DNA of 64,000 nucleotides from positions 98,077 through 162,076 of the forward strand of contig JAYSUD010000005.1 in the NCBI GenBank assembly GCA_043719295.1, given 5' to 3'. The position numbers and the translations under genes are program-made. Origin of the DNA: a bacterium. Lineage in GTDB: Bacteria > Patescibacteriota > Minisyncoccia > Phycocordibacterales > UBA918. A model generated the notes under the pieces. It was not told where the DNA came from. It made no database searches and was given only the letters and a program-made list of their open reading frames with translations. Below are positions 1,376 through 46,911 of the stretch, piece by piece; the first letter of the stretch is position 1, and each line of letters opens with the position of its first letter.

Positions 1376-1688
1376 CGCGAGAGACGGGACTCGAACCCGC
1401 AACCTCTGCCGTGCACTGAATTCATTATTTTCATAATGGCGTGGACTATATCTTTACCATGAGTCTTTCGACTGTTAGGTACCCCGGTATCTAGTCTCTA
1501 CGGCGCCCCCATACTATGTGTTTTTGTATATGGGGTTCCCTCGGTATTCGCATATCTAGTAGTGCTTATTGGGCACTATTTCAAACGACTTAGCCTTCAC
1601 CGATATCCCGGAGAGTTTCAATCCTAACTTTCGAAAGGAAAGCTGCACGTCTACAGGGCAGCGCTCTAACCAATTGAGCTACTCCCGC
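1376..1688 (-). tRNA. tRNA-Asp(GUC) interrupted by a ~239-nt group I-like intron in the anticodon loop
   Basis: 5' half (1653-1688; acceptor GCGGGAG, D-arm GCTC-AATTGGTTA-GAGC, anticodon stem CTGCC) and 3' half (1376-1413; GGCAG, variable AGGTT, T-arm GCGGG-TTCGAGT-CCCGT, acceptor CTCTCGC, discriminator G) are both canonical; splicing at 35/36 gives loop CTGTCAC and a T-arm identical to bacterial tRNA-Asp; 5' exon ends in U and intron ends in G; alternative junction 33/34 would give UGC. Confidence 0.6.
1414..1652 (-). other. putative group I intron (no internal ORF) inside tRNA-Asp
   Basis: 239-nt intervening sequence between canonical tRNA halves; boundaries U|...G| fit group I rules; size matches known tRNA group I introns. 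Confidence 0.45.
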
Positions 1689-2343
1689 AGTTCTTTATAA
1701 ACTCCTCAAAGACGACTTTTTTACGTCGTAAATGGAGTTTGTGAGGAACAGTATACATGATTTTATAAAGTTTCAAAGCGTCTTTAGTTGAGAGGATGAG
1801 TCGTGAATAATTAGCCATCTTTGGCGTATATATTCCCCCACCAATAATACCTCTTGATTGCAACACCATTCGCAAGGATAACAGATACTCGAGTGAACCC
1901 GAGGTGAATATCGATTGCAGTACTTTTGTTGGACTTTTTCGTTGCCTGTTAATAATTCCACTCCAGACATTACCGTCTCCATCAAAATAACCGCGCACAA
2001 AATCTCCAAAAAAATATTCTGGGACCTGCGGCAATTGCATACGCTTAGTTTTATTTGGGAATAAACCAATCTCACCTAAATCATAGAACCACTCCTTACT
2101 TCCAATTTGAATTCTGTATACACATCCAGTTAAGGACTTACGTCCTGAAAGTTTGTGATCAGACTGAAAACACTTTCTCATTGCAACTAATATATCTTTA
2201 TCTGCTGAATATACTGCGACAAAATGAGTGCCTCGCTTTGATTTGACTATATTCCCATCAGCATACATAAACCCTAAAATATAGGCCATGTCGGAAGACC
2301 AAATTTTAAAGAAATCTTTGTTGTATGTTTTAGATATTGGCAT
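1666..2343 (-). CDS. LAGLIDADG homing endonuclease (two-motif, single-chain)
   Basis: two LAGLIDADG-type motifs (LGFMYADGNI and RGYFDGDGNV); its 3' end overlaps tRNA-Asp exon 1 by 23 nt. Confidence 0.8.
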   Translation of the reverse strand: MPISKTYNKDFFKIWSSDMAYILGFMYADGNIVKSKRGTHFVAVYSADKDILVAMRKCFQSDHKLSGRKSLTGCVYRIQIGSKEWFYDLGEIGLFPNKTKRMQLPQVPEYFFGDFVRGYFDGDGNVWSGIINRQRKSPTKVLQSIFTSGSLEYLLSLRMVLQSRGIIGGGIYTPKMANYSRLILSTKDALKLYKIMYTVPHKLHLRRKKVVFEEFIKNCGSSSIG

Positions 2344-2395
2344 CGTGACAGTATATTATACTATACACAACGTGGCAGTTTTATGCATACTACAT

Positions 2396-3409
2396 TTATC
2401 TTCCTAAATGCTTTAATACTTTAAGATACAAATCCTCGACAATTTTTTCTTGTTCTTTTCCCATTTTTGAATAGTGATCTAAACCAGGCGCGGCATTAAT
2501 TTCAATAATCTTAAAGTTATCAATCTGTTGTTTTGTGATATCACCTTGTACTAAAATATCTACTCCGCATAAACGAAGTCCCATGTCTTTTGTAAGTGTA
2601 ATCGCTATCTTTTTAAATGAACTGTGGAGGGCTTTTGTTACATCAACTGATATGCCTCCGGTTGAAAGGTTTGCATTATCAAGTAAAGATACTGCTGTAC
2701 CTTTGGGTAACACAGAAGACGAGTCAAGCTTTAGTCGCTTAAGTTTTTGCAAAATTCGTGCATCGTTTGTTTTTATAACAGTATTGCGTTCTGCTTTTTC
2801 AAATGCTCTTTGTTTTTTTTCTAAAAGCTCAAAGATAGATGACTTTCCATCACCAACAATTGAAAGCGGAATCCGTCTGTATGCAGAAATAATTTCAGTA
2901 TCAAGAACTACAATCCGATAGTCGTCGCCTTGTATGTATGACTGTACCTGTACGAGATTATCAAAGGTAAAAATTTTAGTCACAGCTCCATAAAATTCTT
3001 TTTTGGTATGCACGAGCGTAACCCCAGAACCCTGACTTCCACTATTGGGTTTTACAATAACCGGAAAGCCAATCTTAACCGCATGCCTATACGCTGCATC
3101 AATATCTTCTTTCGGTGCACCGATAGTAACTCCCCAATGTTTTGAGAAAAATACCTTACTGTTTGGGATAACGGGGTACCCCAATGACTTCATAAAGAAG
3201 GTTGCATAGTCTTTGTCTTTTGCAATATCAGATGCCCCAACTGGATTAAGATCAAGCGTGTTAAAGCGGAAGTAGGAACGCTTTCCATTTTTAAAAGTGA
3301 TCTGTCCCGCAATTCTCCATGTAGGTTCTAAAAGAACCGATGCGCCAATAGAGGGAGCAATTTTTTTGATAATGCTCCCCAAAATAAATGATTCCCGTTT
3401 CTTTTTCAT
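2396..3409 (-). CDS. ATP-grasp ligase (RimK/glutathione-synthetase/cyanophycin-synthetase-like)
   Basis: ATP-grasp signature region (VIVKPNSGSQGSGV, EINAAPG) in a 337-aa ORF. Confidence 0.6.
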   Translation of the reverse strand: MKKKRESFILGSIIKKIAPSIGASVLLEPTWRIAGQITFKNGKRSYFRFNTLDLNPVGASDIAKDKDYATFFMKSLGYPVIPNSKVFFSKHWGVTIGAPKEDIDAAYRHAVKIGFPVIVKPNSGSQGSGVTLVHTKKEFYGAVTKIFTFDNLVQVQSYIQGDDYRIVVLDTEIISAYRRIPLSIVGDGKSSIFELLEKKQRAFEKAERNTVIKTNDARILQKLKRLKLDSSSVLPKGTAVSLLDNANLSTGGISVDVTKALHSSFKKIAITLTKDMGLRLCGVDILVQGDITKQQIDNFKIIEINAAPGLDHYSKMGKEQEKIVEDLYLKVLKHLGR

Positions 3410-3600: not shown

Positions 3601-4272
3601 TTATTTACTTGCTTGTATGAGACCTAAAATTTTGTACCTCAATGTTGTACCACGAGCTACTCGTAATGCCAACACGCCGTAATAGGAATCATGATTTTCA
3701 TATATCTTTTTCGGACGGCCTTTGAGGAAAATAACTTTGTTAAATTGCTCTTTCGGGATTGATAGAAAATTAGACCAGAAAGTCATAATGACGCATTCAC
3801 GAGGTTTATGTATCTCTGATACATAAATATATGGTCGAAAATCAGACCTTTGCACCCCTAGTTGCTCAAACCAATTCCGAGCAAAAAGTATAACTGAAGG
3901 GTCAGAATTAACAAGAGCAGTACCACTCCCTCCTGCTTTAACACCCTCACCCCAGTACAACCCAATACCTAACATCAGTCTGTCACGTTTCGTCATTTTT
4001 CCAATTATAGCCTTTGCTTTATGCTCTTGTTCTAGGATATTTTCAATCTTTTTACGTCTATTTGATTCTGCTCCCATCATTCTACCTCTGTTTCCAGCTT
4101 TAATTTGTTGCAGTGTAAGTATTTCTCTTTGCGAATCAGAAAGCACTAAATCTCTACACCAAATACTCACTGAACTACTGGATACCCTAAGTCTCTTAGC
4201 TATCGCTTTAATACTCAGCCCATCAGTACGTAGATTTCTTGCAAGTAGTTTTTCTACACTTTTAGCCATCAA
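3601..4272 (-). CDS. HTH + degenerate LAGLIDADG-like (LYWGEG) homing-endonuclease-related protein
   Basis: N-terminal HTH (LSIKAIAKRLRVSSSSVSIW); C-terminal GIGLYWGEGvK...TALVNSD...ILFARNWFEQLGV parallels the I-CreI-type LAGLIDADG alpha-beta-beta-alpha core; stop codon abuts the tRNA-Met 5' end with a 1-nt gap; paralog at 46912-47569. Confidence 0.5.
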   Translation of the reverse strand: MMAKSVEKLLARNLRTDGLSIKAIAKRLRVSSSSVSIWCRDLVLSDSQREILTLQQIKAGNRGRMMGAESNRRKKIENILEQEHKAKAIIGKMTKRDRLMLGIGLYWGEGVKAGGSGTALVNSDPSVILFARNWFEQLGVQRSDFRPYIYVSEIHKPRECVIMTFWSNFLSIPKEQFNKVIFLKGRPKKIYENHDSYYGVLALRVARGTTLRYKILGLIQASK

Positions 4273-10883: not shown

Positions 10884-12296
10884 CTACTTTTGATCATCGT
10901 AGATTTTCTTTCCGATGTCAAAGAGGCGTGCATCACCACCATGTGGTCCTATATATTGTACCCCAACAGGGAGACGAACTCCGTCACGTTGTACCACACA
11001 AGAAGGAATTGAAATTGCAGGGACTCCCGCAAGATTCACAGGAACGGTAAAAATATCTGCTTTATACATCGAAAGTAAATCTTTCTTTTCTCCAAACTTA
11101 AAAGCAGGAATTGGTGAAGTTGGAGTTAGGATAAGATCAACGGTTTTGAAAACACTGTCCAACTCTTCACGCATCATCTGGCGCACTGCTTCTGCTTTTG
11201 CATAATAGGCGTCATAGTACCCCGAGGAAAGGACATAGGTGCCAAGTAAAATCCGGCGCTTCACTTCAGGACCAAAACCTTGTGCTCGAGTTTTTTCATA
11301 CACATCAAGAAGTGTCTCTCCATCTACGCTAAGTCCATACCGCATTCCATCGTATCGCGCTGTGTTTGATGAGACTTCAGCAGGGATAGAGATATAGTAT
11401 GCTGCTAAACCTTTCTCAAAAAGCGGAAGTGCAATATCGACAACGGTGTAACCCTCACTTTTTAGAAAAGAAACATGTGCCTCAAATGCTTCCATTACGT
11501 CAGCATCAATCCCCTCTTTCAAGAAATCTTTTGGAATACCAATAGTGTACGTTTCTTTTAACGGCACTTCTTTGTACGTATCATGCGCTATAGTAGTAGC
11601 ATCCATGGCGTCAAGTCCTTCTATGACACTGTGTACTAGCTCTGCATCAGCAACTGAGGTTGTAAGTGGCCCCGCTTGATCAAACGACGAACCCATCGCC
11701 ATAAGTCCACAACGTGAAACGGCACCATAGGTTGGCTTAAATCCAATAAGACCACAGAAACTTGCTGGCTGACGGACTGATCCTCCAGTATCTGTTCCGA
11801 TAGCAACAGGTACAGCTCCCATAGCAACCGCCGCAGCAGAGCCTCCTGAAGAGCCTCCAGGAACACGCGTGGTATCAAGAGGGTTTTTTGTTGGACCAAA
11901 AGCTGAGTTCTCTGTTGAAGATCCCATCGCAAACTCATCGAGGTTAGTTGAACCAATAAGTATTGCCCCAGCTTCTTTTAGGCGAGTAATGATTGTTGCG
12001 TCGTACGTTGCCGTATAGTTCTCAAGAATTTTTGAACCTCCTGTCGCTTTCTTACCTTGTATTAAGATGTTGTTTTTTATAGCGATTGGTACACCAAGAA
12101 GCGCTGGTGTATTTTGACCTTCAGTTTTAAAACGTTCTGTCGCAACTTCCGCCTCCACAAGCGCATCGTGATACACATCTAAAAAAGCATGAATGTCACC
12201 ATCCTTTTCTTTGATAATTTGAAGTGAGTCTGTTACTGCCTGAAGAGGTGTATACGAACCATCAATAAATTTTGTACGTAATTGTGAAATAGTCAT
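10884..12296 (-). CDS. gatA: Glu-tRNA(Gln)/Asp-tRNA(Asn) amidotransferase subunit A
   Basis: amidase signature GGSSGGSAAAVA; ATG 1 nt after the gatC stop. Confidence 0.9.
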   Translation of the reverse strand: MTISQLRTKFIDGSYTPLQAVTDSLQIIKEKDGDIHAFLDVYHDALVEAEVATERFKTEGQNTPALLGVPIAIKNNILIQGKKATGGSKILENYTATYDATIITRLKEAGAILIGSTNLDEFAMGSSTENSAFGPTKNPLDTTRVPGGSSGGSAAAVAMGAVPVAIGTDTGGSVRQPASFCGLIGFKPTYGAVSRCGLMAMGSSFDQAGPLTTSVADAELVHSVIEGLDAMDATTIAHDTYKEVPLKETYTIGIPKDFLKEGIDADVMEAFEAHVSFLKSEGYTVVDIALPLFEKGLAAYYISIPAEVSSNTARYDGMRYGLSVDGETLLDVYEKTRAQGFGPEVKRRILLGTYVLSSGYYDAYYAKAEAVRQMMREELDSVFKTVDLILTPTSPIPAFKFGEKKDLLSMYKADIFTVPVNLAGVPAISIPSCVVQRDGVRLPVGVQYIGPHGGDARLFDIGKKIYDDQK

Positions 12297-12297
12297 A

Positions 12298-12588
12298 CTA
12301 GTCTTGTTGCAGAATTTTCTTAACTTGTACATGCTTCCCACTCACTTTTGGAGCTTCATGCAATAGAGCATCAGTGTATCTTCCCGCTTCGACGGTAACG
12401 ACGTCATCTCGAAAAATATTGTACCGCGCACCAACTTTTTTACTAAGCTTCATGTCGGCTGTTATCGAATTGATGTCACTTACGTATGAAAGTACCGACT
12501 CAATATCAGCTTTAAGTGATTCTGCTTCCTTATCATCAATGCCAATGCGGGCCAAACGTGCGAGGTGTAAAATATCTTCTTTTTCCAT
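12298..12588 (-). CDS. gatC: Glu-tRNA(Gln)/Asp-tRNA(Asn) amidotransferase subunit C
   Basis: 96-aa GatC-like sequence directly upstream of and overlapping gatA. Confidence 0.8.
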   Translation of the reverse strand: MEKEDILHLARLARIGIDDKEAESLKADIESVLSYVSDINSITADMKLSKKVGARYNIFRDDVVTVEAGRYTDALLHEAPKVSGKHVQVKKILQQD

Positions 12589-12643
12589 GTTGGATATACT
12601 AGCATAATGAGCTTTTAACGGCGAACAAAGAAATCAGACTTGG

Positions 12644-14680
<2,037 letters not shown>

Positions 14681-14737
14681 CTACTTGGTATAGAGGGTGA
14701 TTGCAATGACGGGGAGAGGTGATTTTGTGGGGGGGGA

Positions 14738-15306
14738 AATATAGTTATACCTAAAGATTGGAGTACCCTAGACAGGACGCAAACGTACACAACGAAGCAG
14801 GGGTAGTCTTTGCTAAGAAATGCTTACAAAGGCGGGGTTATCTAAGAGTTCGAGACGTCCAGCAGTTTCTCACTCGTTTGCTTATTTCAAGCAAGACACC
14901 AGCACATTTTCTCTCCCGTAGGTCGAAAATGTTGGGTGTTTGCATAAGGCACCTGATTTTTAACGACCGAAGGGAGTGTAAAAATGGATGTACTCTTGTG
15001 GTGGAAATATAGTCATTACTGCTGACAGAGTTAACTGGGACTTTAGAGACGTCCAGCGGTTTTCGCTGAACGATACTATAAGCACAGCTAACGCTGAGGC
15101 TTATAGTATCGTTCTCGGACAGCGCGAAAACCGGGACGGAAGTTCGCTATTGTCGCTACTGCTGACAGAGTTAACTGAAACTTTAGAGACGTCCAGCGGT
15201 TTCTCACTCGTTTGCTTATTTCAAGCAAGACACCAGCACATTTTCTCTCCCGTAGGTCGAAAATGTTGGGTGTTTGCATAAGGGAAATATAGTCGTCGCT
15301 TTGCGA
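14738..15306. repeat. repeat-rich intergenic leader: two ~98-bp direct repeats (14852-14949, 15186-15283), two ~45-bp direct repeats (15017-15060, 15157-15201), a ~78-nt hairpin (15053-15130) and three GGAAATATAGT boxes
   Basis: direct sequence comparison; lies between the ligA start and the 3' end of the minor pilin gene. Confidence 0.7.
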
Positions 15307-15318
15307 CTCTTTATTTCC

Positions 15319-15948
15319 CTAAAATTCCACTGTCAGCTCGCGTTGGATGGTGAAGATGCTGTTGCCGATGTCTGCGCATACTCGGTTATAGCCTCGAGAT
15401 ACAATGATGGTGCATAGATTACCAGCTTCACATGTCTTCCCTCCTCCATTACCAATTCCTTTGTTTATGTCTGTAAAATCATGTGCAACAATCCCAGCAG
15501 CAGTTGTTGGTTGCATGATATACATATCCACTTCACTACAGCGATCATCAGCAGGATTTACCGAAGTTGCACCCCAAGTAAATCTATACGTAAAAACATC
15601 TATAAACCCTCCCACTACTGGTGTTCGTTGCGCATATGTTTTTGAATCTTGAGAGCCTCCAAAACAGGAGATGGTAGGATCAGTGCGGTTTGTGACAAAG
15701 TCTGGTTCAGCCGAATTTTCATACCGCCAATACCATAAACAATCAACACCTGCATGAGCAGCTTGGAAGGCAATTTCTGATTCACGTGCAGTAGAGGCAA
15801 GGTTAATTTGACTTACTGACACATGAAGCAAGGAAACACCAATAGCAAGCACAACACTCGAAATAATGATAGAAAGCAACAGTGCAAATCCACTTTGATT
15901 GTTTTTATTTTTTAGAGTTGCAGTATGCATATGTTTATAAATCTTCAT
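15319..15948 (-). CDS. type IV pilin-like minor pilin/pseudopilin (atypical, no Glu5)
   Basis: prepilin-like N-terminus NQSGFALLLSIIISSVVLAIG. Confidence 0.5.
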   Translation of the reverse strand: MKIYKHMHTATLKNKNNQSGFALLLSIIISSVVLAIGVSLLHVSVSQINLASTARESEIAFQAAHAGVDCLWYWRYENSAEPDFVTNRTDPTISCFGGSQDSKTYAQRTPVVGGFIDVFTYRFTWGATSVNPADDRCSEVDMYIMQPTTAAGIVAHDFTDINKGIGNGGGKTCEAGNLCTIIVSRGYNRVCADIGNSIFTIQRELTVEF

Positions 15949-16573
15949 AGATATTGAATAAACTTGTCTGCAAAACAACACTTTGTGTTGTACCTCCAAG
16001 ATACGTAGTGTTCCAACTTACCTCAACAGATACCAAAACTTCATCTGTACCTTGCCTAGTCAATTTAATAGCACGAGTGTAGGCAGTTGGAAGACCCCCA
16101 GCGATGTTATGGGTATACAGACTTGCAGTATTTGCAGCAGAAGTACGTATTCTCATTCTACATGGATTAATAACAGAAGTTGCAACAGTACAAATAAAGT
16201 CGTTGTTATTTAGAAGTGTAACATCTCTAAAATCAATACCACATCCATAGGGATTTCCTGCAGTAGGAAAACAGTTAAACGGCAAAGCACTGTTGCTATC
16301 TCCTGCAGGAGGGGTTGTCCATACCCAAGGATCTGGGCCCGGACCAGGGGTATTGTATGCTACCAATGCGTATTCATTTCGAATTATATTTACAGCAGTA
16401 ATCCCCTCTTGTGCAAGGAAAAAAGCTGTTGTTTGCTGGCGTGCATACTGTGCTGTTTGAATACTTTTTGCAGCAATAGTTAATGGACCTACAATTGCTA
16501 GCATTAAAATTGATATCGCAATTAATACCTCTACAAGTGAATATCCTTTTTCTGTTTTTGTTATCGTGTACAT
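15935..16573 (-). CDS. minor pilin with prepilin-type N-terminal cleavage/methylation domain
   Basis: KG|YSLVEVLIAISIL class III signal. Confidence 0.65.
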   Translation of the reverse strand: MYTITKTEKGYSLVEVLIAISILMLAIVGPLTIAAKSIQTAQYARQQTTAFFLAQEGITAVNIIRNEYALVAYNTPGPGPDPWVWTTPPAGDSNSALPFNCFPTAGNPYGCGIDFRDVTLLNNNDFICTVATSVINPCRMRIRTSAANTASLYTHNIAGGLPTAYTRAIKLTRQGTDEVLVSVEVSWNTTYLGGTTQSVVLQTSLFNIYEDL

Positions 16574-16574
16574 A

Positions 16575-17195
16575 CTAAATATCAAGGAGTTGTTGCGTTA
16601 CCGTGGTCTGTATGCTAAATGCTGCAGGCGGAACATTGTCATCATCTTTTGCATAACCCTCAACATAAATAGTTACACGAGGTTGTACCAAATCACCAGC
16701 AGTAGAACCATTAACTTCAAAACGCAGGAATGTAATCAGTGTATTCGGTGAGGTAACAGAAATCCATGAACCATTTCCAAGTCTACGTTCAATGGCGTTT
16801 GCATTAAGTCGAAATGCAATTCGATCTCCAAAAACTCCATTGGTTAAACTCTGCCCTCCCTCATTGAAGCTCAAAGCACGTCCATCGGCAGAGCCTGAAG
16901 TGCAATCATTTCGTGTTGTTCCTGAAGTTGTCAGTGAAGCTACGCTACCACAATAGTAATCAGACCCTGTACGTATGTCACGAGTCATACTATCAAGCGT
17001 ATACGTTATATTGGTCATAACTTCTTGCATGTTCCGCGCACGAGCATTTGCGTCTATAAGCACCAAAAGTGATCCCACACTGATGGTAACAACAACCGTA
17101 AAAATAGAAAGTGAAACGAGTACTTCTATCAATGAAAAACCTTTCTTTTGACTTAAAGCTTCGTGCATCATTTTTGAAAAATTAAAATATGTCAT
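16575..17195 (-). CDS. minor pilin with prepilin-type N-terminal cleavage/methylation domain
   Basis: KKG|FSLIEVLVSLSIF. Confidence 0.65.
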   Translation of the reverse strand: MTYFNFSKMMHEALSQKKGFSLIEVLVSLSIFTVVVTISVGSLLVLIDANARARNMQEVMTNITYTLDSMTRDIRTGSDYYCGSVASLTTSGTTRNDCTSGSADGRALSFNEGGQSLTNGVFGDRIAFRLNANAIERRLGNGSWISVTSPNTLITFLRFEVNGSTAGDLVQPRVTIYVEGYAKDDDNVPPAAFSIQTTVTQQLLDI

Positions 17196-17812
17196 GGCAG
17201 ATTTTCAACACTCATTTGGCCTGATGCTGAAACGCGTACAATTTTTGAAGCTGAAACATCAGCAATACTAGAAATATAAACAAGTGCAGTTTGGACATTA
17301 GCTACAGTTGGACCAGTGCTATAAAACGCAGCATCAAAATCAGGACGTTCAAACGTGACTGCGAGGGTAGTAACATCAGTTGCACTACCACCACAAGCAC
17401 TAATTGCTCCCGTTGAGACGCACATACGACTTATAACAAAACGAGGATCAACAATTGTTGGGCCACCTATTTCTTCACCAGCATTATAATGCGCAGGGAC
17501 GTCAGCATCACCAACATCTTGAAAGAGTAAGTATTGAGTTGGGAGACTCATATTAAAATACAACCCATACTCCTCTCTGAAGTTGTTGTTTTTACCTTTT
17601 GAACTAATGGCAAGTGATTGTGTCTCTCTTAGATCAAACGCTGTCTTGTACGCTTGACTCGTGAGTAACACCGAACTGTTAAAAGACGAATACTGGACGA
17701 GCACAATTCCTGTTACTAAAACAACAATGGTGATAGTCACCATAAGCTCAACAACGGTAAAACCACTTTTTTTAAAACGTAGCCATTTATTGTTTGAGAT
17801 AGGATTGACCAT
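17192..17812 (-). CDS. minor pilin with prepilin-type N-terminal cleavage/methylation domain
   Basis: KSG|FTVVELMVTITI. Confidence 0.6.
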   Translation of the reverse strand: MVNPISNNKWLRFKKSGFTVVELMVTITIVVLVTGIVLVQYSSFNSSVLLTSQAYKTAFDLRETQSLAISSKGKNNNFREEYGLYFNMSLPTQYLLFQDVGDADVPAHYNAGEEIGGPTIVDPRFVISRMCVSTGAISACGGSATDVTTLAVTFERPDFDAAFYSTGPTVANVQTALVYISSIADVSASKIVRVSASGQMSVENLP

Positions 17813-17816
17813 AGAG

Positions 17817-18647
17817 TTAAAAAAGTTTTGCGATGATTGAAAGTACGTCTGTCTGCATGAAGAACACAATCACAAACGCAATAAGCATAAACGGAGCGAA
17901 TGGAACTTCACTCTTCATTGTAATGGGTATTTGTAAAAATGACATCTGATTTTTCCCCTTTTCCAATATTTTTTGAATGACAATGAGTGCAATACTCAAA
18001 ATCGCTCCAATCCAAAATGAAAATACCACAAACGAAAACGCACTTAGAGGTAGAAGCATAAGGCCAAGCGGAAACGCAAGTTTCACATCCCCAAGACCAA
18101 TCCATCGTCCTTTTGATACAAGCCAGAGTGTAAGATAAAACAGTGTCGCTCCAAATCCTGCAATAAGGTGTGGGATGAGACTTAAAAGTGAAGATGCTAC
18201 GTACGCCTCATAGCCTACATACAAACTTGCACACAAGAAGACTGCAACCACAAACTCGTTTGGAATAATCATATGGCGCATGTCATAGGCCGCAATTACC
18301 ACAAGAAATGATGCGAGCGTTAGTCCAAATGCTAGAAAGAGTAACGATGGCGAAGAAAGGTACACAAGCATAAAGAGCCCTGCTGTTGTTAGCTCCATCA
18401 GGAGTAACCGCATAGGAATAAACGCATCACACGACTTACACTTCCCTTTTAACAGGACGTATGACAACAGTGGAAATAACTCGTACCATGAGAGCGTATG
18501 GCCACACGACATACACCGTGATCTACCATTAATTGATTTTCCCGTATGGAAACGGCAAACAATAACGTCGAGGAAACTCCCCATAATGAGACCAAGGATT
18601 GCTGTCAGAAAAAGCATATAATACGTTGGCAAAAGTGACATCAGTTC
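17817..18647 (-). CDS. pilD: prepilin peptidase (A24 family)
   Basis: CxxC...CxxC zinc cluster (CMSCGH...CKSCD) and multi-TM peptidase A24 core; start trimmed so it does not run into the upstream terminator. Confidence 0.85.
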   Translation of the reverse strand, partial: ELMSLLPTYYMLFLTAILGLIMGSFLDVIVCRFHTGKSINGRSRCMSCGHTLSWYELFPLLSYVLLKGKCKSCDAFIPMRLLLMELTTAGLFMLVYLSSPSLLFLAFGLTLASFLVVIAAYDMRHMIIPNEFVVAVFLCASLYVGYEAYVASSLLSLIPHLIAGFGATLFYLTLWLVSKGRWIGLGDVKLAFPLGLMLLPLSAFSFVVFSFWIGAILSIALIVIQKILEKGKNQMSFLQIPITMKSEVPFAPFMLIAFVIVFFMQTDVLSIIAKLF

Positions 18648-18708
18648 CATATTGCATAATTGTACACCATGCATAGAGATACAATACCACTTATTAAAAT
18701 AGTAATAT

Positions 18709-18739
18709 AAAAAATCCTGCACAAGTACAGGATTTTTTT
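18709..18739. terminator. rho-independent terminator after pilin gene (ATCCTG-cacaagta-CAGGAT + T-run)
   Basis: hairpin flanked by an A-run and a T-run. Confidence 0.55.
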
Positions 18740-18757: not shown

Positions 18758-19171
18758 TTATGGGCAGAGGGTATTTGATGAAGGAAGAGTACCTGATGGT
18801 GATGTAGTTGAAGTACCGAGACTATCCATACAGATAAATCCACCCGTCTTTAGTGGTCCAGCAAAGACCCACTCATCAGCATCGTTTTCGTTACAATATG
18901 GTGCTGCTACTTTTAAGGTAATGTCAGCAATAATTTGGAGTATGTTTGCATTTGTACAAAGATTATCATAACTTACTGTACCGTCTGCCTTACTCCCAAA
19001 AATGTTTGCTTGTGCTCGTGCGTTATTAACAGATGCCTGGACTGATGCGTCAGTGCCTTTTTCACGTGCAGTAGACAATGATGCCAACACTACAGAGGCC
19101 AAGATTCCGATAATAGCGATAACCACCAAGAGTTCGATGAGGGTGAAACCTCGTTGTGCGAATTTGTTAAT
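18758..19171 (-). CDS. pilA: type IV major pilin (PilA-like)
   Basis: MINKFAQRG|FTLIELLVVIAIIGILASVVL prepilin N-terminus; C-terminal Cys pair. Confidence 0.8.
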   Translation of the reverse strand: MNKFAQRGFTLIELLVVIAIIGILASVVLASLSTAREKGTDASVQASVNNARAQANIFGSKADGTVSYDNLCTNANILQIIADITLKVAAPYCNENDADEWVFAGPLKTGGFICMDSLGTSTTSPSGTLPSSNTLCP

Positions 19172-19233
19172 CATAGATAAAGTATACCTCTGTGTCACCT
19201 ATCGATTTATACACTTTGGGGAAAACTGTGCTA

Positions 19234-19281: not shown

Positions 19282-19722
19282 TTATGGACAGGTTGCTCCT
19301 GATGGAGCTGTGTACCCAGTTGTATATGTTTTAGAAGTTCCAGTACTGTCAGAACAAATACCAGAACCACTAGTAGTCACAAGTGGTGTTGCCAAAACCC
19401 ATGATGTAGCTGCTGGTGTACAAGTTACAACATTACTTGTGCCATTCTTTGCTTCCATATCAGCAACAATAGCTGCTCCTTGACCATTGGTACAAACGTT
19501 AGCGCCAGAAGCGTTATAAATAACTGTACCATTAGGTTGATTACCGACAATTTCTGCATTCGCTCTGAAGTTACTTAGCCCAGCTTGAAGCGCAGCATCC
19601 GTTCCTTTACTTCGTGCAGTAGACAATGATGCCAACACTACAGAGGCCAAGATTCCGATAATAGCAATAACCACCAAGAGCTCGATGAGGGTGAAACCTC
19701 GTTGTGCAATTTTTTTAATCAT
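19282..19722 (-). CDS. pilA: type IV major pilin paralog (PilA-like)
   Basis: MIKKIAQRG|FTLIELLVVIAIIGILASVVL; ~95 nt of the 5' coding region is near-identical to the neighbouring pilin. Confidence 0.8.
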   Translation of the reverse strand: MIKKIAQRGFTLIELLVVIAIIGILASVVLASLSTARSKGTDAALQAGLSNFRANAEIVGNQPNGTVIYNASGANVCTNGQGAAIVADMEAKNGTSNVVTCTPAATSWVLATPLVTTSGSGICSDSTGTSKTYTTGYTAPSGATCP

Positions 19723-19915
19723 ATCGTACTTATTTTTTAAAACACTAATTTGTGTGTACCGTATTCAGACATCAGCTGAGGTGTCTTAATTCGGTTATCA
19801 CACAGTGATTCACCAACGTGAATATATACAGTATACGCCCTCCTTCAAAAGAAAAGGCAACCGTATGTGGAGAAATGGTTATTTCTTTTCTCATATTCAC
19901 TCATTAGTACAGAGG

Positions 19916-30762: not shown

Positions 30763-30875
30763 CTTCGAATCCCTCCGCACGTGACATTTAGTCACGTGCT
30801 CATCTTCCGCGAACAAAATATGCGCCCTTGTGGGGCGCTATTTTGAATCGCGGAAGATGAGGGATTCGAACCCTC
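30763..30875. repeat. extended inverted repeat: inverted copy of the 3'-terminal ~25 nt of tRNA-Ser(ACU) (30763-30775 + 30799-30811) facing the tRNA 3' end (30849-30875), with two nested hairpins
   Basis: reverse-complement comparison of the flanks. Confidence 0.7.
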
Positions 30876-30937
30876 GAAGGATTTAACTCCTTGGCAGTTT
30901 AGTAAACTGCTGCTTTCAGCCACTCAGCCAATCTTCC
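30851..30937 (-). tRNA. type II (Ser-like) tRNA with anticodon ACU (loop TTACTAA)
   Basis: 87 nt; acceptor GGAAGAT/ATCTTCC, 3-bp D-stem GCT/AGC, long variable arm (AAGGA-GTTAAA-TCCTT), T-arm GAGGG-TTCGAAT-CCCTC, discriminator G; anticodon stem GCAGT/ACTGC. Confidence 0.65.
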
Positions 30938-34909: not shown

Positions 34910-35046
34910 GTTACATGTCGAAGCTGGATACTATGAAAATGCATCAAACCCAAGGCATTGCCTTGGGTTTGATGGTTGCGGAGGGAATTTCGGTCATTAC
35001 ATGACCAGTATCTGTTGTCGCTCTTTTTCCAAAAGAGCTGGCAACA

Positions 35047-35142
35047 GCTTCGAATCCCTCCTTTTCTCGCAAATGCAACAAAACCCAAACAAAGCTTTGG
35101 CTTTGTTTGGGTTTTGGCATTTGCGGAAAAGGAGGGATTCGA
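35047..35142. repeat. ~45-bp near-perfect hairpin whose outer arms are the tRNA-Ser(GCU) 3' end (35125-35142) and its inverted copy (35047-35064)
   Basis: reverse-complement comparison; inner arms cgcaaatgcaacaaaacccaaacaaagc / gctttgtttgggttttggcatttgcg. Confidence 0.7.
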
Positions 35143-35209
35143 ACCCTCGAGGGTTATTCACCCTACTTTCTTAGCAAGAAAGCACAATCGGCCTCTCTGA
35201 CACTTTTCC
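35124..35209 (-). tRNA. tRNA-Ser(GCU), type II
   Basis: 86 nt; acceptor GGAAAAG/CTTTTCC, anticodon stem CTTTC/GAAAG loop TTGCTAA, variable arm AGGGT-GAATA-ACCCT, T-arm GAGGG-TTCGAAT-CCCTC; D-arm irregular in hand fold. Confidence 0.6.
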
Positions 35210-35226
35210 TTATTCGACATAATACG

Positions 35227-36216
35227 TTATTTCAAGTACCTTTTCAAATGCTTTGGATTATGAGTTCCAATTTCTTTCATGTACCGAGCAACATCGTGGA
35301 TTGCATCAATACGAACATTGGTTCCACTACATGTGGCAGTACTCCCGAATCGATGCAGAATAAATAACACCTCGTTTCGAAGCGGTTTTGAAGCGGAAGA
35401 AAAACATAATTTCTTATATTGATACTCCTTACCTCCTACTTTATATTTATGGAGATACACTGAACCATCTGTATCCATTAATCCTCGTAGACATGCCGAG
35501 GAATATTCTTCATTTTCTAAAATCCATGCAGGGATATGTACCTGCTGTTTCACTTTGTTACCTATAACGAGTCCTAGGGATACAAGAAAGATGACTGCCT
35601 TTTTCCGTGCCAAAACAATACTATGTGCATGTGCATCTTTACGAACATACACACTTGGCATCACCCCAAATAATTTTTGCATCAATGATTTAACAAACAA
35701 CCCATATTCAAAATCATCAACAGAATGTAAAGTGACCGACACCTGATACTGTGTCAGTCCTCCATCGCCAAGCATGATGCCTATAAATTCAGCAAGTTTA
35801 TTATTTCTCACTGGTATACAAATATTTTTTGTAAAAAAATCTGCTATTTCAGTTTTTCCGCCATTATCAAACCATCTACGCCAACTCTCTTTGCGCACTG
35901 TTTCATTCACAGGAACTCTGCCATACTTTTTCATTACTGCGGAAGAACCTGCTAAACCAGCCCGACTAGTATGCTCATAGCGATTAATTTGACAGACTCT
36001 TGGGACAAGCATATTGGCTTCTTTTGCGAGCAAAACTAGACTCTCATATGGCATCATAGTTTTACCTAACTTCCATCCACGAATTGTACGGTCCGAACAA
36101 TTGCAAATTTTTGCCATACGACCTACTGATACTTTATCGCATGCTTTTGACATCCACAGGGCTTGTTTTTCTATCGAAGCAAACTTTGCTTTTTTATCTA
36201 CTAAAGAATCTATCAT
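35227..36216 (-). CDS. LAGLIDADG homing endonuclease (two-motif) with N-terminal HTH
   Basis: motifs EFIGIMLGDGGL and LRGLMDTDGSV; HTH near the N-terminus; directly upstream of tRNA-Ser(GCU). Confidence 0.8.
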   Translation of the reverse strand: MIDSLVDKKAKFASIEKQALWMSKACDKVSVGRMAKICNCSDRTIRGWKLGKTMMPYESLVLLAKEANMLVPRVCQINRYEHTSRAGLAGSSAVMKKYGRVPVNETVRKESWRRWFDNGGKTEIADFFTKNICIPVRNNKLAEFIGIMLGDGGLTQYQVSVTLHSVDDFEYGLFVKSLMQKLFGVMPSVYVRKDAHAHSIVLARKKAVIFLVSLGLVIGNKVKQQVHIPAWILENEEYSSACLRGLMDTDGSVYLHKYKVGGKEYQYKKLCFSSASKPLRNEVLFILHRFGSTATCSGTNVRIDAIHDVARYMKEIGTHNPKHLKRYLK

Positions 36217-46688: not shown

Positions 46689-46762
46689 CCGCCCTTAGCT
46701 CAGTTGGTTAGAGCATGGAGCTTATACCTCCAGGGTCCCACGTTCGAGTCGTGGAGGGCGGA
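46689..46762 (+). tRNA. tRNA-Ile(UAU)
   Basis: acceptor CCGCCCT/AGGGCGG, D-arm GCTC-AGTTGGTTA-GAGC, anticodon stem TGGAG/CTCCA loop CTTATAC, T-arm CCACG-TTCGAGT-CGTGG, discriminator A. Confidence 0.7.
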
Positions 46763-46911
46763 CAAAAATTGAATTCATATACAAAAATGGTCATTGGTTC
46801 GCACCACAAGAGTATTTCCGTTTTCTAATTCCTTTCAGTCATAAAAAAACTAGGTCAGTCCAAGAGGTCAGACACAGTATATCTCTTTTATATTTTGAAA
46901 AAAATCCTAGT

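Follow-up and report, generated by a model that had tools for sequence, protein, structure and literature searches.

The window analyzed here, by which we mean the whole 64,000-nt stretch presented above, contains a repeat-rich gap of 0.6 kb between the last gene of a pilin-like operon and ligA, which encodes the NAD-dependent DNA ligase. In our judgment this region is probably an insertion of ~610 bp, a tandem and partly rearranged array of modules that belong to a dispersed family of intergenic repeats, patchily represented in Paceibacteria and similar in kind to repetitive extragenic palindromic sequences and the bacterial interspersed mosaic elements that they form (REP/BIME) or to MITEs (miniature inverted-repeat transposable elements). 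Arrays of this family are gained and lost between close relatives and grow by tandem duplication. A first-pass annotation had proposed a structured non-coding RNA (ncRNA), a riboswitch-like leader of ligA or the remnant of a duplicated small element; the last of these came closest and was broadly right.

Repeats in the gap and the empty site in relatives

The repeats, boxes and hairpins reported in the first-pass annotation are all present, with small corrections. The direct repeats given as 98 bp are 101 nt long (Table 1; 98% identical, with 2 mismatches), and those given as 45 bp are the near-identical core of a 55-nt repeat (91% identical). The box GGAAATATAGT, an 11-mer, occurs in exactly three copies in 64 kb compared with 0.02 expected, and the 17-nt head GAGACGTCCAGCRGTTT is found at 14852, 15046 and 15186 and nowhere else in the window. 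As had been described, a TTGCTT-ATTTC-AAGCAA hairpin is embedded in both 101-nt copies (14878-14894 and 15212-15228). The long imperfect hairpin, for which a 15-bp core had been given, has perfect arms of 16 nt (15068-15083 and 15099-15114) within a stem of ~35 bp (~15050-15138) and a folding energy of ~-52 kcal/mol on either strand, and the 646-nt gap as a whole folds far better than shuffled sequences (plus strand, z = -7.9; minus strand, z = -6.6). In line with the first-pass annotation, no open reading frame (ORF) in the region has support. An independent Logan assembly (SRR23617205, L001), on which the LigA protein is 100% identical, agrees with the window in every base from ligA past box 1 and breaks within the first 101-nt copy, as is typical where a repeat is longer than the assembler k-mer. 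The right junction was not recovered in a second assembly by exact-sequence look-up of the last pilin-like protein.

The closest LigA relatives are only 71-74% identical, and we compared synteny around ligA at five of their loci (L002-L006). All share the order pilD, four pilin-like genes, ligA, gatC and gatA, with a gap of no more than 48-64 bp between the end of the pilin-like genes and ligA. Directly upstream of ligA, three of them (L002, L003 and L005) carry TTGCAA-N17-TACGCT/TACGAT/TAGGAT, and the arrangement in the window is alike. The conservation of this site and its sigma-70-like form suggest that it is a ligA promoter. In the window, the array stands where the relatives have a few bases, between the stop codon of the last pilin-like gene and the -35 box of ligA. 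Given the 48- to 64-bp gap in relatives and the promoter-like site retained beside ligA, the ~610 bp read, on sequence comparison, as a lineage-specific insertion upstream of the putative ligA promoter and not as a leader. No target-site duplication could be recognized at the insertion. An Rfam scan, which the first-pass annotation had suggested, gave no match within 12000-18000 even at E<=10, and nothing in the region reached gathering thresholds when the whole window was searched. The lack of an Rfam match, the short gap in relatives and the position upstream of the promoter-like site together leave the riboswitch or leader reading unsupported. Absence from relatives had been named as the mark of simple duplication noise; the repeats are indeed missing at the orthologous site, but homologues exist at other sites in Paceibacteria.

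Covariation, modules and turnover of the repeat family

A metagenome scan with the head motif identified two loci, L016 and L017, whose similarity spans the whole central hairpin module at 71-76% identity, and RNAalifold applied to four sequences predicted a 32-pair hairpin with compensatory changes in 15 pairs. We then retrieved contigs via neighboring proteins, namely the arginyl-tRNA synthetase (ArgRS) of L016 and the ABC ATPase of L017, and ran covariance model R1 over them, raising the number of distinct full members of the hairpin module, here called H, to ten, with scores of 73-142 bits (Table 1). The homologues of the window H come from independent samples and assemblies (JGI, ENA and Logan). 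In the alignment of the ten members, 93.8% of pair cells were paired, compared with 74% in column shuffles and 32-44% when partners were slid. Changes on both sides were seen in 20 of the 32 pairs, amounting to 68 such cells vs 23 +/- 3.4 in shuffles, and none of 500 shuffles reached the observed covariation score. Four parts are conserved at the level of sequence: the head, the mini-hairpin at the apex (CAGC-TAAC-GCTG-AGG), an internal loop on the 3′ side (TCTCGGnCAGC) and the 22-nt tail (GRAAATTCnnAATAGTCRCTAC). Taxon names among the LigA and ArgRS matches are mixed and apparently partly mis-binned, but several are Paceibacteria or Parcubacteria, pointing to that group of the candidate phyla radiation (CPR). 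Some matches were discarded. Those at metagenome loci L011-L015 were attributed to chance, with L012 and L015 lying in repeated coding sequence that encodes ..FETSS.., and a covariance-model match in the window itself (35032-35154, 28-30 bits) combines a tRNA-Ser 3′ end and an inverted copy of it with a long perfect hairpin.

Three types of module could be distinguished. H is a hairpin of ~110 nt with the head, the apical mini-hairpin and the 3′ internal loop described above. The other two were recognized by inspection and from motif maps: X, a hairpin whose loop reads CTCCCnnnGGTCG, and S, in which a short hairpin follows GTAGTGCGCCGAT and has a stem that covaries between loci (GATTCC/GGAATC, GACTGC/GCAGTC and AATTTGCTC/GAGCAAATT). 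Every module is followed by the 22-nt tail, and arrays end in a post motif, ..CTCGTTTGCTYATTTMA (also written ..CGCTCGTTTGCTCATTTCA), which in nearly every array overlaps or abuts either the start codon of a co-directional gene or the stop codon of a convergent one. The window array likewise terminates at the pilin-like stop codon. S modules begin with GTAG, as part of GTAGTGCGCCGAT, and tails end in CRCTAC, which is able to pair with it; H modules have no consistent GTAG. Orientation of modules is uniform within L026, L031, L017 and L021, and the only inverted module is one X in the window, whose match to L026 runs in the relative orientation opposite to that of the H match. Two resemblances considered by eye, between the head and a tRNA T-arm and between the S head and a dif/XerC arm, were set aside as too weak.

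Compared with these arrays, the window copy looks decayed and rearranged, with one recent internal duplication: its three boxes are tails sharing the same 5-nt deletion, one X is inverted, and each 101-nt repeat lacks the hairpin and has its head joined directly to a post-like motif. The 55-nt repeats are composed of tail, linker and head. The 101-nt repeats score only 12-14 bits with H covariance models and would thus be rearranged or degenerate members, the two copies of which probably arose recently by unequal recombination between heads.

Filled and empty orthologous sites were seen at the pilin-ligA gap, at the 3′ end of argS, and upstream of and inside an ABC transporter operon. Where argS lacks the element, as in L021, L022 and L024, its reading frame closes with ..ATG TAG and the sequence beyond is unrelated; L016 and L018 have ..ATG TGA AAT GA.. 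there, with the TGA stop supplied by the post end of an element. In L017, L026 and L030 (88-100% identity of the ABC proteins), elements lie directly before the start codons of the ABC ATPase and permease, and in L031 (80%) they are absent, with spacers of 62 and 113 nt in their place. The position of the L017 ATPase between two elements had raised the idea of a defense or mobile cassette, which we rejected, as it is a highly conserved transport-type ATPase that in relatives precedes a MacB/FtsX permease. Loci of LigA relatives (58 kb) and of ArgRS relatives (32 kb) contained no family member. Tandem growth is apparent in L031 (16770-17302), where S-X-tail units of 146/147 nt are 100% identical. 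At this locus, too, a direct repeat of 15 nt, AACTGGACTGG(T/G)TA(G/A), brackets an S-type element of 111 nt; the two flanks, AACTGGACTGGTTAG and AACTGGACTGGGTAA, duplicate the final five codons of the neighboring gene.

The family is also a target of an IS110-family element, which spans L018:3547-4885 (transposase L018:3755-4810, NF033542, 221 bits) and was found again at L026:17272-17304. Its junction, ..CTTCTTACAGTTTCGACT|ATGACC.., is identical in degenerate family members at two loci, L018/L019 and L026, of which L019 and L026 come from the same sample; the left flank reads ..CTTCTTACAGTTTCGACT (also ..ACAGTTTCGACT) and the right flank ATGACCCCC.. (also ATGACCCCCTCC..). The element interrupts the repeat and is not flanked by it, and its non-coding ends have no covariance-model match. 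REP sequences are known targets of IS110-family elements (PMC1525189, PMC12288879). Insertion at an identical junction in two members suggests that the guide RNA of this IS110 element may be programmed for the repeat family.

Palindromic repeat, RNA gene or other system

The pairing in H does not distinguish the strands. Watson-Crick pairs fill 297 of the 320 pair cells, compared with 3 cells for G-U and 12 for A-C, and over the ten hairpins the difference in folding energy between strands averages 0.7 kcal/mol with no consistent sign, so that neither measure indicates a preferred transcribed strand. Because pairing is essentially restricted to Watson-Crick pairs and both strands fold equally well, it is probably the palindrome as such that is under selection. 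Elements have no fixed orientation to the adjacent genes: they lie in sense before start codons at two positions and converge with the neighbor at five or more others. A promoter and terminator scan yielded one promoter-like and three terminator-like matches, close to the numbers in shuffles. No terminator follows the hairpins on either strand, except for a small one at the end of the window array, where the core GTCGC-TTT-GCGAC (15295-15307) is terminator-like on both strands. The boxes could be read as promoters on either strand (TATAGT on the plus strand, TTAACT-17-TATATT on the minus strand), but such sites are no more numerous than in shuffles and the reading was not used. Strand symmetry and the pattern of gain and loss together favor a palindromic repeat of the REP/BIME, BOX or MITE type over a strand-specific RNA gene. 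Under such a model, new copies would arise by an insertion process, selection would maintain pairing of the stem while its sequence drifts, and what is recognized would be the palindrome in its folded form, a DNA hairpin or cruciform or the fold of either strand when transcribed, as for repeats of those types. The local effect is probably passive: the array would keep the pilin-like operon apart from ligA and place a terminator-like hairpin immediately behind the last pilin-like stop codon, with ligA retaining its own proximal promoter.

Several results weigh against a dispersed palindromic repeat. The two copies in L017 (L017a and L017b) differ by ~30% and yet remain paired through compensatory changes, and loop sequences are conserved across lineages; conserved loops combined with compensatory divergence are also expected of a functional RNA or a protein-binding site. 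A head-motif scan of 185,579 GTDB species representatives found no family member, the four single matches to TTHGAGACGTCCAGCRGTTT being in unrelated taxa, about as many as expected by chance and with flanks lacking similarity. Scans of viral contigs with head and tail patterns likewise found none (a single match inside a coding region was ascribed to chance), and blastn against phage and plasmid collections gave no match. These negatives imply that the family is rare or narrowly distributed. A covariance-model scan detected only one family locus in the 64-kb window; L026 has three array loci within 17 kb, and L019, which comes from the same sample, has one more. Inspection of element ends revealed no clear terminal inverted repeats, and only one target-site duplication was seen. 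Finally, no mobilizing transposase, RAYT (the Y1 transposase of REP elements) or integrase was found among the ~50 ORFs of the window by Pfam scan, and the fetched loci hold only the IS110 element.

An alternative is a new structured ncRNA, of which the H, X and S hairpins would be genes or domains, acting either in trans or as a cis element of mRNAs (a stabilizer, processing site or protein-binding site), in which case the arrays would be multi-copy RNA genes and mobility would be secondary. We regard this as possible but on the whole unlikely. The first-pass suggestion of a structured ncRNA was correct in that the central hairpin is conserved and covaries strongly, with head, apical-loop and internal-loop sequences maintained across lineages and between diverged copies on the same contig. 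A cis-acting RNA would also fit the ABC operon of L017, L026 and L030, where a sense-oriented H directly precedes each of two start codons, and a -10-like TAATAG/TATAGT recurs, by eye, upstream of heads and inside tails. On the other hand, orientation to neighboring genes is inconsistent, G-U pairs make up only 1% of the total, the strands fold equally well, hairpins are not followed by terminators save at the end of the window array, Rfam has no match, and elements are absent at orthologous sites in relatives with 70-80% protein identity and dispensable in close relatives. It is also possible, though on the whole unlikely, that the H, X and S modules with their tails are cis-acting parts of an as yet undiscovered CPR mobilization or RNA-protein system. 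One possibility is single-strand hairpin transposition, in which an enzyme would read the hairpin and the 22-nt tail ending in CTAC and insert at start or stop codons; another is that multi-hairpin RNAs give expression signals to genes without Shine-Dalgarno sequences.

The remaining explanations are much less credible. Mere noise from local tandem duplication, or an artefact of assembly, in either case without related sequences at other loci, might account for two 101-nt copies that are 98% identical in a region absent from relatives at this site, and a second assembly confirms the left junction only, but nine other full homologues with compensatory changes come from independent samples and assemblies, and the X module and tails are shared with other loci, which makes this reading very improbable. 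We give as little weight to a guide-RNA array or the remnant of an RNA-guided system, whether a TIGR array (tandem interspaced guide RNA), a CRISPR-like array or an IS110 bridge RNA. A conserved short tail does alternate in tandem with hairpins, TIGR-Tas systems occur in CPR genomes (PMC12045711), and an IS110 element adjoins family members. The units here, though, are irregular and 110-280 nt long, their "spacers" are conserved hairpins common to different organisms, no Tas, Cas or DEDD recombinase gene (DEDD_Tnp_IS110) is present among the ~50 window ORFs, and the IS110 element interrupts the repeat and has non-coding ends without a model match. CRISPR, retron or diversity-generating retroelement, and IS110 bridge-RNA readings were accordingly set aside, as there are no partner genes and no model match. 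Least probable of all is a cis-regulatory leader or riboswitch of ligA. Its attraction is a highly structured region upstream of ligA on the coding-strand side; in addition to the short gap in relatives, the intervening promoter-like site and the negative Rfam result, homologous elements elsewhere adjoin unrelated genes (argS, the ABC transporter and hypothetical genes).

Surroundings of the array and comparison with known repeats

The flanking genes are all on the minus strand, in the order pilD, four pilin-like ORFs, the gap, ligA, gatC and gatA, so that the array is upstream of ligA and has its place downstream of the pilin-like operon. The three genes preceding the last pilin-like gene carry N_methyl motifs. 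Coordinates are collected in Table 1.

Table 1. Positions of the array modules and flanking genes in the window, and of family members at other loci.
Feature	Position	Strand	Remarks
ligA (NAD-dependent DNA ligase)	12644..14674	-	Pfam DNA_ligase_aden, OB, HHH and BRCT domains
ligA promoter-like site, TTGCAA (14701-14706) - 17 nt - TAGGAT (14678-14683)	14678..14706	-	Between array and ligA
Box 1, GGAAATATAGT; tail with 5-nt deletion, GAAAT[TCGCA]ATAGTC	14735..14745	+	Deletion relative to full tails GRAAATTCnnAATAGTCRCTAC
Unique segment	14746..14848	+	No blastn match in any fetched locus
101-nt repeat copy 1 (module M1)	14849..14949	+	H-type head fused to post-like motif, then X-type hairpin
M1 H-type head GACGTCCAGCAGTTT	14854-14868	+	Fused directly to post-like motif
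M1 post-like motif CACTCGTTTGCTTATTTCA	14871-14889	+	With TTGCTT..AAGCAA hairpin, 14878-14894
M1 X-type hairpin	14895-14940	+	Loop CTCCCGTAGGTCG at 14913-14925
Inverted X-type hairpin module	14951..15002	-	Minus-strand loop CTCCCTTCGGTCG; 77% identity over 52 nt to L026:17042-17093
Box 2 (deleted tail)	15003..15013	+	Also opens 55-nt repeat copy a (15008-15062)
Canonical H element (module M2)	15032..15165	+	Covariance-model scores 140 bits (R1) and 129 bits (R2), E ~1e-33 to 1e-35
M2 head GACGTCCAGCGGTTT	15048-15062	+	
M2 conserved apical mini-hairpin CACAGCTAACGCTGAGG	15083-15099	+	
M2 full-length tail GGAAGTTCGCTATTGTCGCTAC	15137-15158	+	
55-nt repeat copy b (tail, linker and head)	15148..15202	+	Joins M2 to M3
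101-nt repeat copy 2 (module M3)	15183..15283	+	Composition as M1
Terminal hairpin AGGGAAATA...TATTTCCCT	15281..15320	.	Contains box 3 (15283-15293); ends at pilin-like stop codon
Last gene of pilin-like operon, 226 aa	15319..15999	-	No Pfam match; gene order same in relatives
pilD	17817-18722	-	Precedes the four pilin-like ORFs
Full H members	window 15032-15165; L016:1443-1575; L017:628-761, 2238-2371; L021:353-485		
Full H members, continued	L026:9854-9989, 11401-11524, 17080-17202; L030:938-1070, 2480-2613		
L026 array	16910-17252		tail-H-X-tail-S-tail-post
L031 array	16910-17302		(S-X-tail) x2, then S-tail-post; units 100% identical
L017 array	2135-2371		H-tail-S-tail-post

The conserved site TTGCAA-N17-TA(C/G)G(A/C)T lies 3-10 nt before the annotated ATG of ligA (window 14672-14706; likewise in L002, L003 and L005). 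This spacing suggests that the ligA leader may be very short or absent, or that a second ATG (14660-14662 in the window) may be used. The rest of the window is ordinary chromosome, with type IV pilus genes, recQ, recG, ftsH, smpB and the tmRNA gene, and the Pfam scan of its ~50 ORFs detected no transposase, integrase, reverse transcriptase or Cas/Tas gene. A direct repeat of 208 nt (18968-19175 and 19516-19723, 78% identical) corresponds to two adjacent paralogous pilin genes at 18758-19198 and 19282-19722, both with N_methyl motifs. A group I intron (Rfam RF00028, 51 bits, 1422-1669, minus strand) adjoins a LAGLIDADG ORF (1666-2343), and a tRNA-like 3′ half is found beside it at 1375-1405 on the minus strand; the whole is probably a tRNA gene split by an intron and missed by ARAGORN. 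A second LAGLIDADG ORF (35227-36216) lies just upstream of tRNA-Ser(GCT) (35123-35209). There, an inverted, perfect 18-nt copy of the tRNA-Ser 3′ end (35049-35066 vs 35126-35143) brackets a 17-bp perfect hairpin (35079-35116), an arrangement within 35032-36216 that might be the remnant of an integration site. ARAGORN also reported tRNA-Ser with anticodon ACT (30850-30937) and tRNA-Ile with anticodon TAT (46689-46763), both of which are unusual in bacteria. Outside the window, L017 has a CRISPR-like array (3733-4019) with a 62-nt period at 1.4 kb from two family members; its repeat contains ATCTACAAAAGTAGAAAT, which on the other strand we take to resemble Cas12a-type repeats.

REP/BIME sequences and REPINs of Enterobacteria and Pseudomonas resemble the family in several respects: they are imperfect intergenic palindromes located just past gene ends, form mosaic arrays with short conserved motifs, and vary in presence between relatives. 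They are also preferred targets of IS110-family elements, including IS621. REPs are flanked by GTAG/CTAC, which the S modules starting with GTAG and the tails ending in CTAC recall. They differ in that the modules described here are 60-135 nt long rather than ~35 nt, have conserved loops and are mostly co-directional instead of alternating; no RAYT was seen in the window ORFs or the fetched loci. REPs occur in many copies per genome; for the present family, one locus was seen in the 64-kb window and three in 17 kb of L026. The BOX elements of Streptococcus pneumoniae (boxA-boxB(n)-boxC) and the enterobacterial repetitive intergenic consensus sequences or intergenic repeat units (ERIC/IRU) share the use of few module types in variable number, strong predicted structure and an intergenic, non-coding location. 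There is no sequence similarity to them, and we know of no BOX, ERIC or IRU counterpart to a 22-nt tail after every hairpin or to a terminal motif abutting start or stop codons.

Similarity to MITEs such as the Correia elements of Neisseria and the repeat unit of pneumococcus (RUP) lies in size, non-coding nature, presence or absence at orthologous sites and one duplication-flanked insertion. MITEs, too, can sit immediately upstream of start codons, a position from which elements may supply expression signals. In contrast to MITEs, the family has no convincing terminal inverted repeats, the only insertion sequence found (IS110 family) has unrelated ends and interrupts the repeat, the single duplication of 15 nt is unusually long, and same-contig copies are highly diverged yet structured. 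Riboswitches and structured leaders likewise have long, conserved, covarying hairpins with conserved loops, and some copies of the family occupy a 5′ untranslated region position; the family differs in being tied to no gene family, not conserved upstream of ligA orthologues, strand-symmetric and without an Rfam match. TIGR arrays have units of 36 nt, with repeats of 8-12 nt and spacers of 9 nt, beside a Nop-domain Tas gene (PMC12045711). Neither they nor CRISPR arrays match the irregular units of 110-280 nt seen here, whose neighbors are pilin-like genes and ligA.

The H/X/S family is apparently new, with no match in Rfam, in phage, plasmid and viral collections, among GTDB representatives or in our literature searches, although its kind, that of dispersed intergenic palindromic repeats, is known. 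Genomes of CPR bacteria (Patescibacteria) are compact, at ~1 Mb, and are usually described as repeat-poor. We know of no structured repeat family, dispersed in such genomes, that has been reported, and our literature search found none. For the window region itself, annotation as a ligA leader or riboswitch should be avoided. Since several short contigs end inside it, the family is a likely cause of assembly breaks. Located at gene boundaries, expanding in tandem and serving as a landing pad for an RNA-guided IS110 element, it is a marker of recent genome dynamics in these symbionts and may supply transcription or translation signals to adjacent genes. If the tentative reading as part of a mobilization or RNA-protein system were true, these very small genomes, otherwise poor in repeats, would contain an element of a new class.

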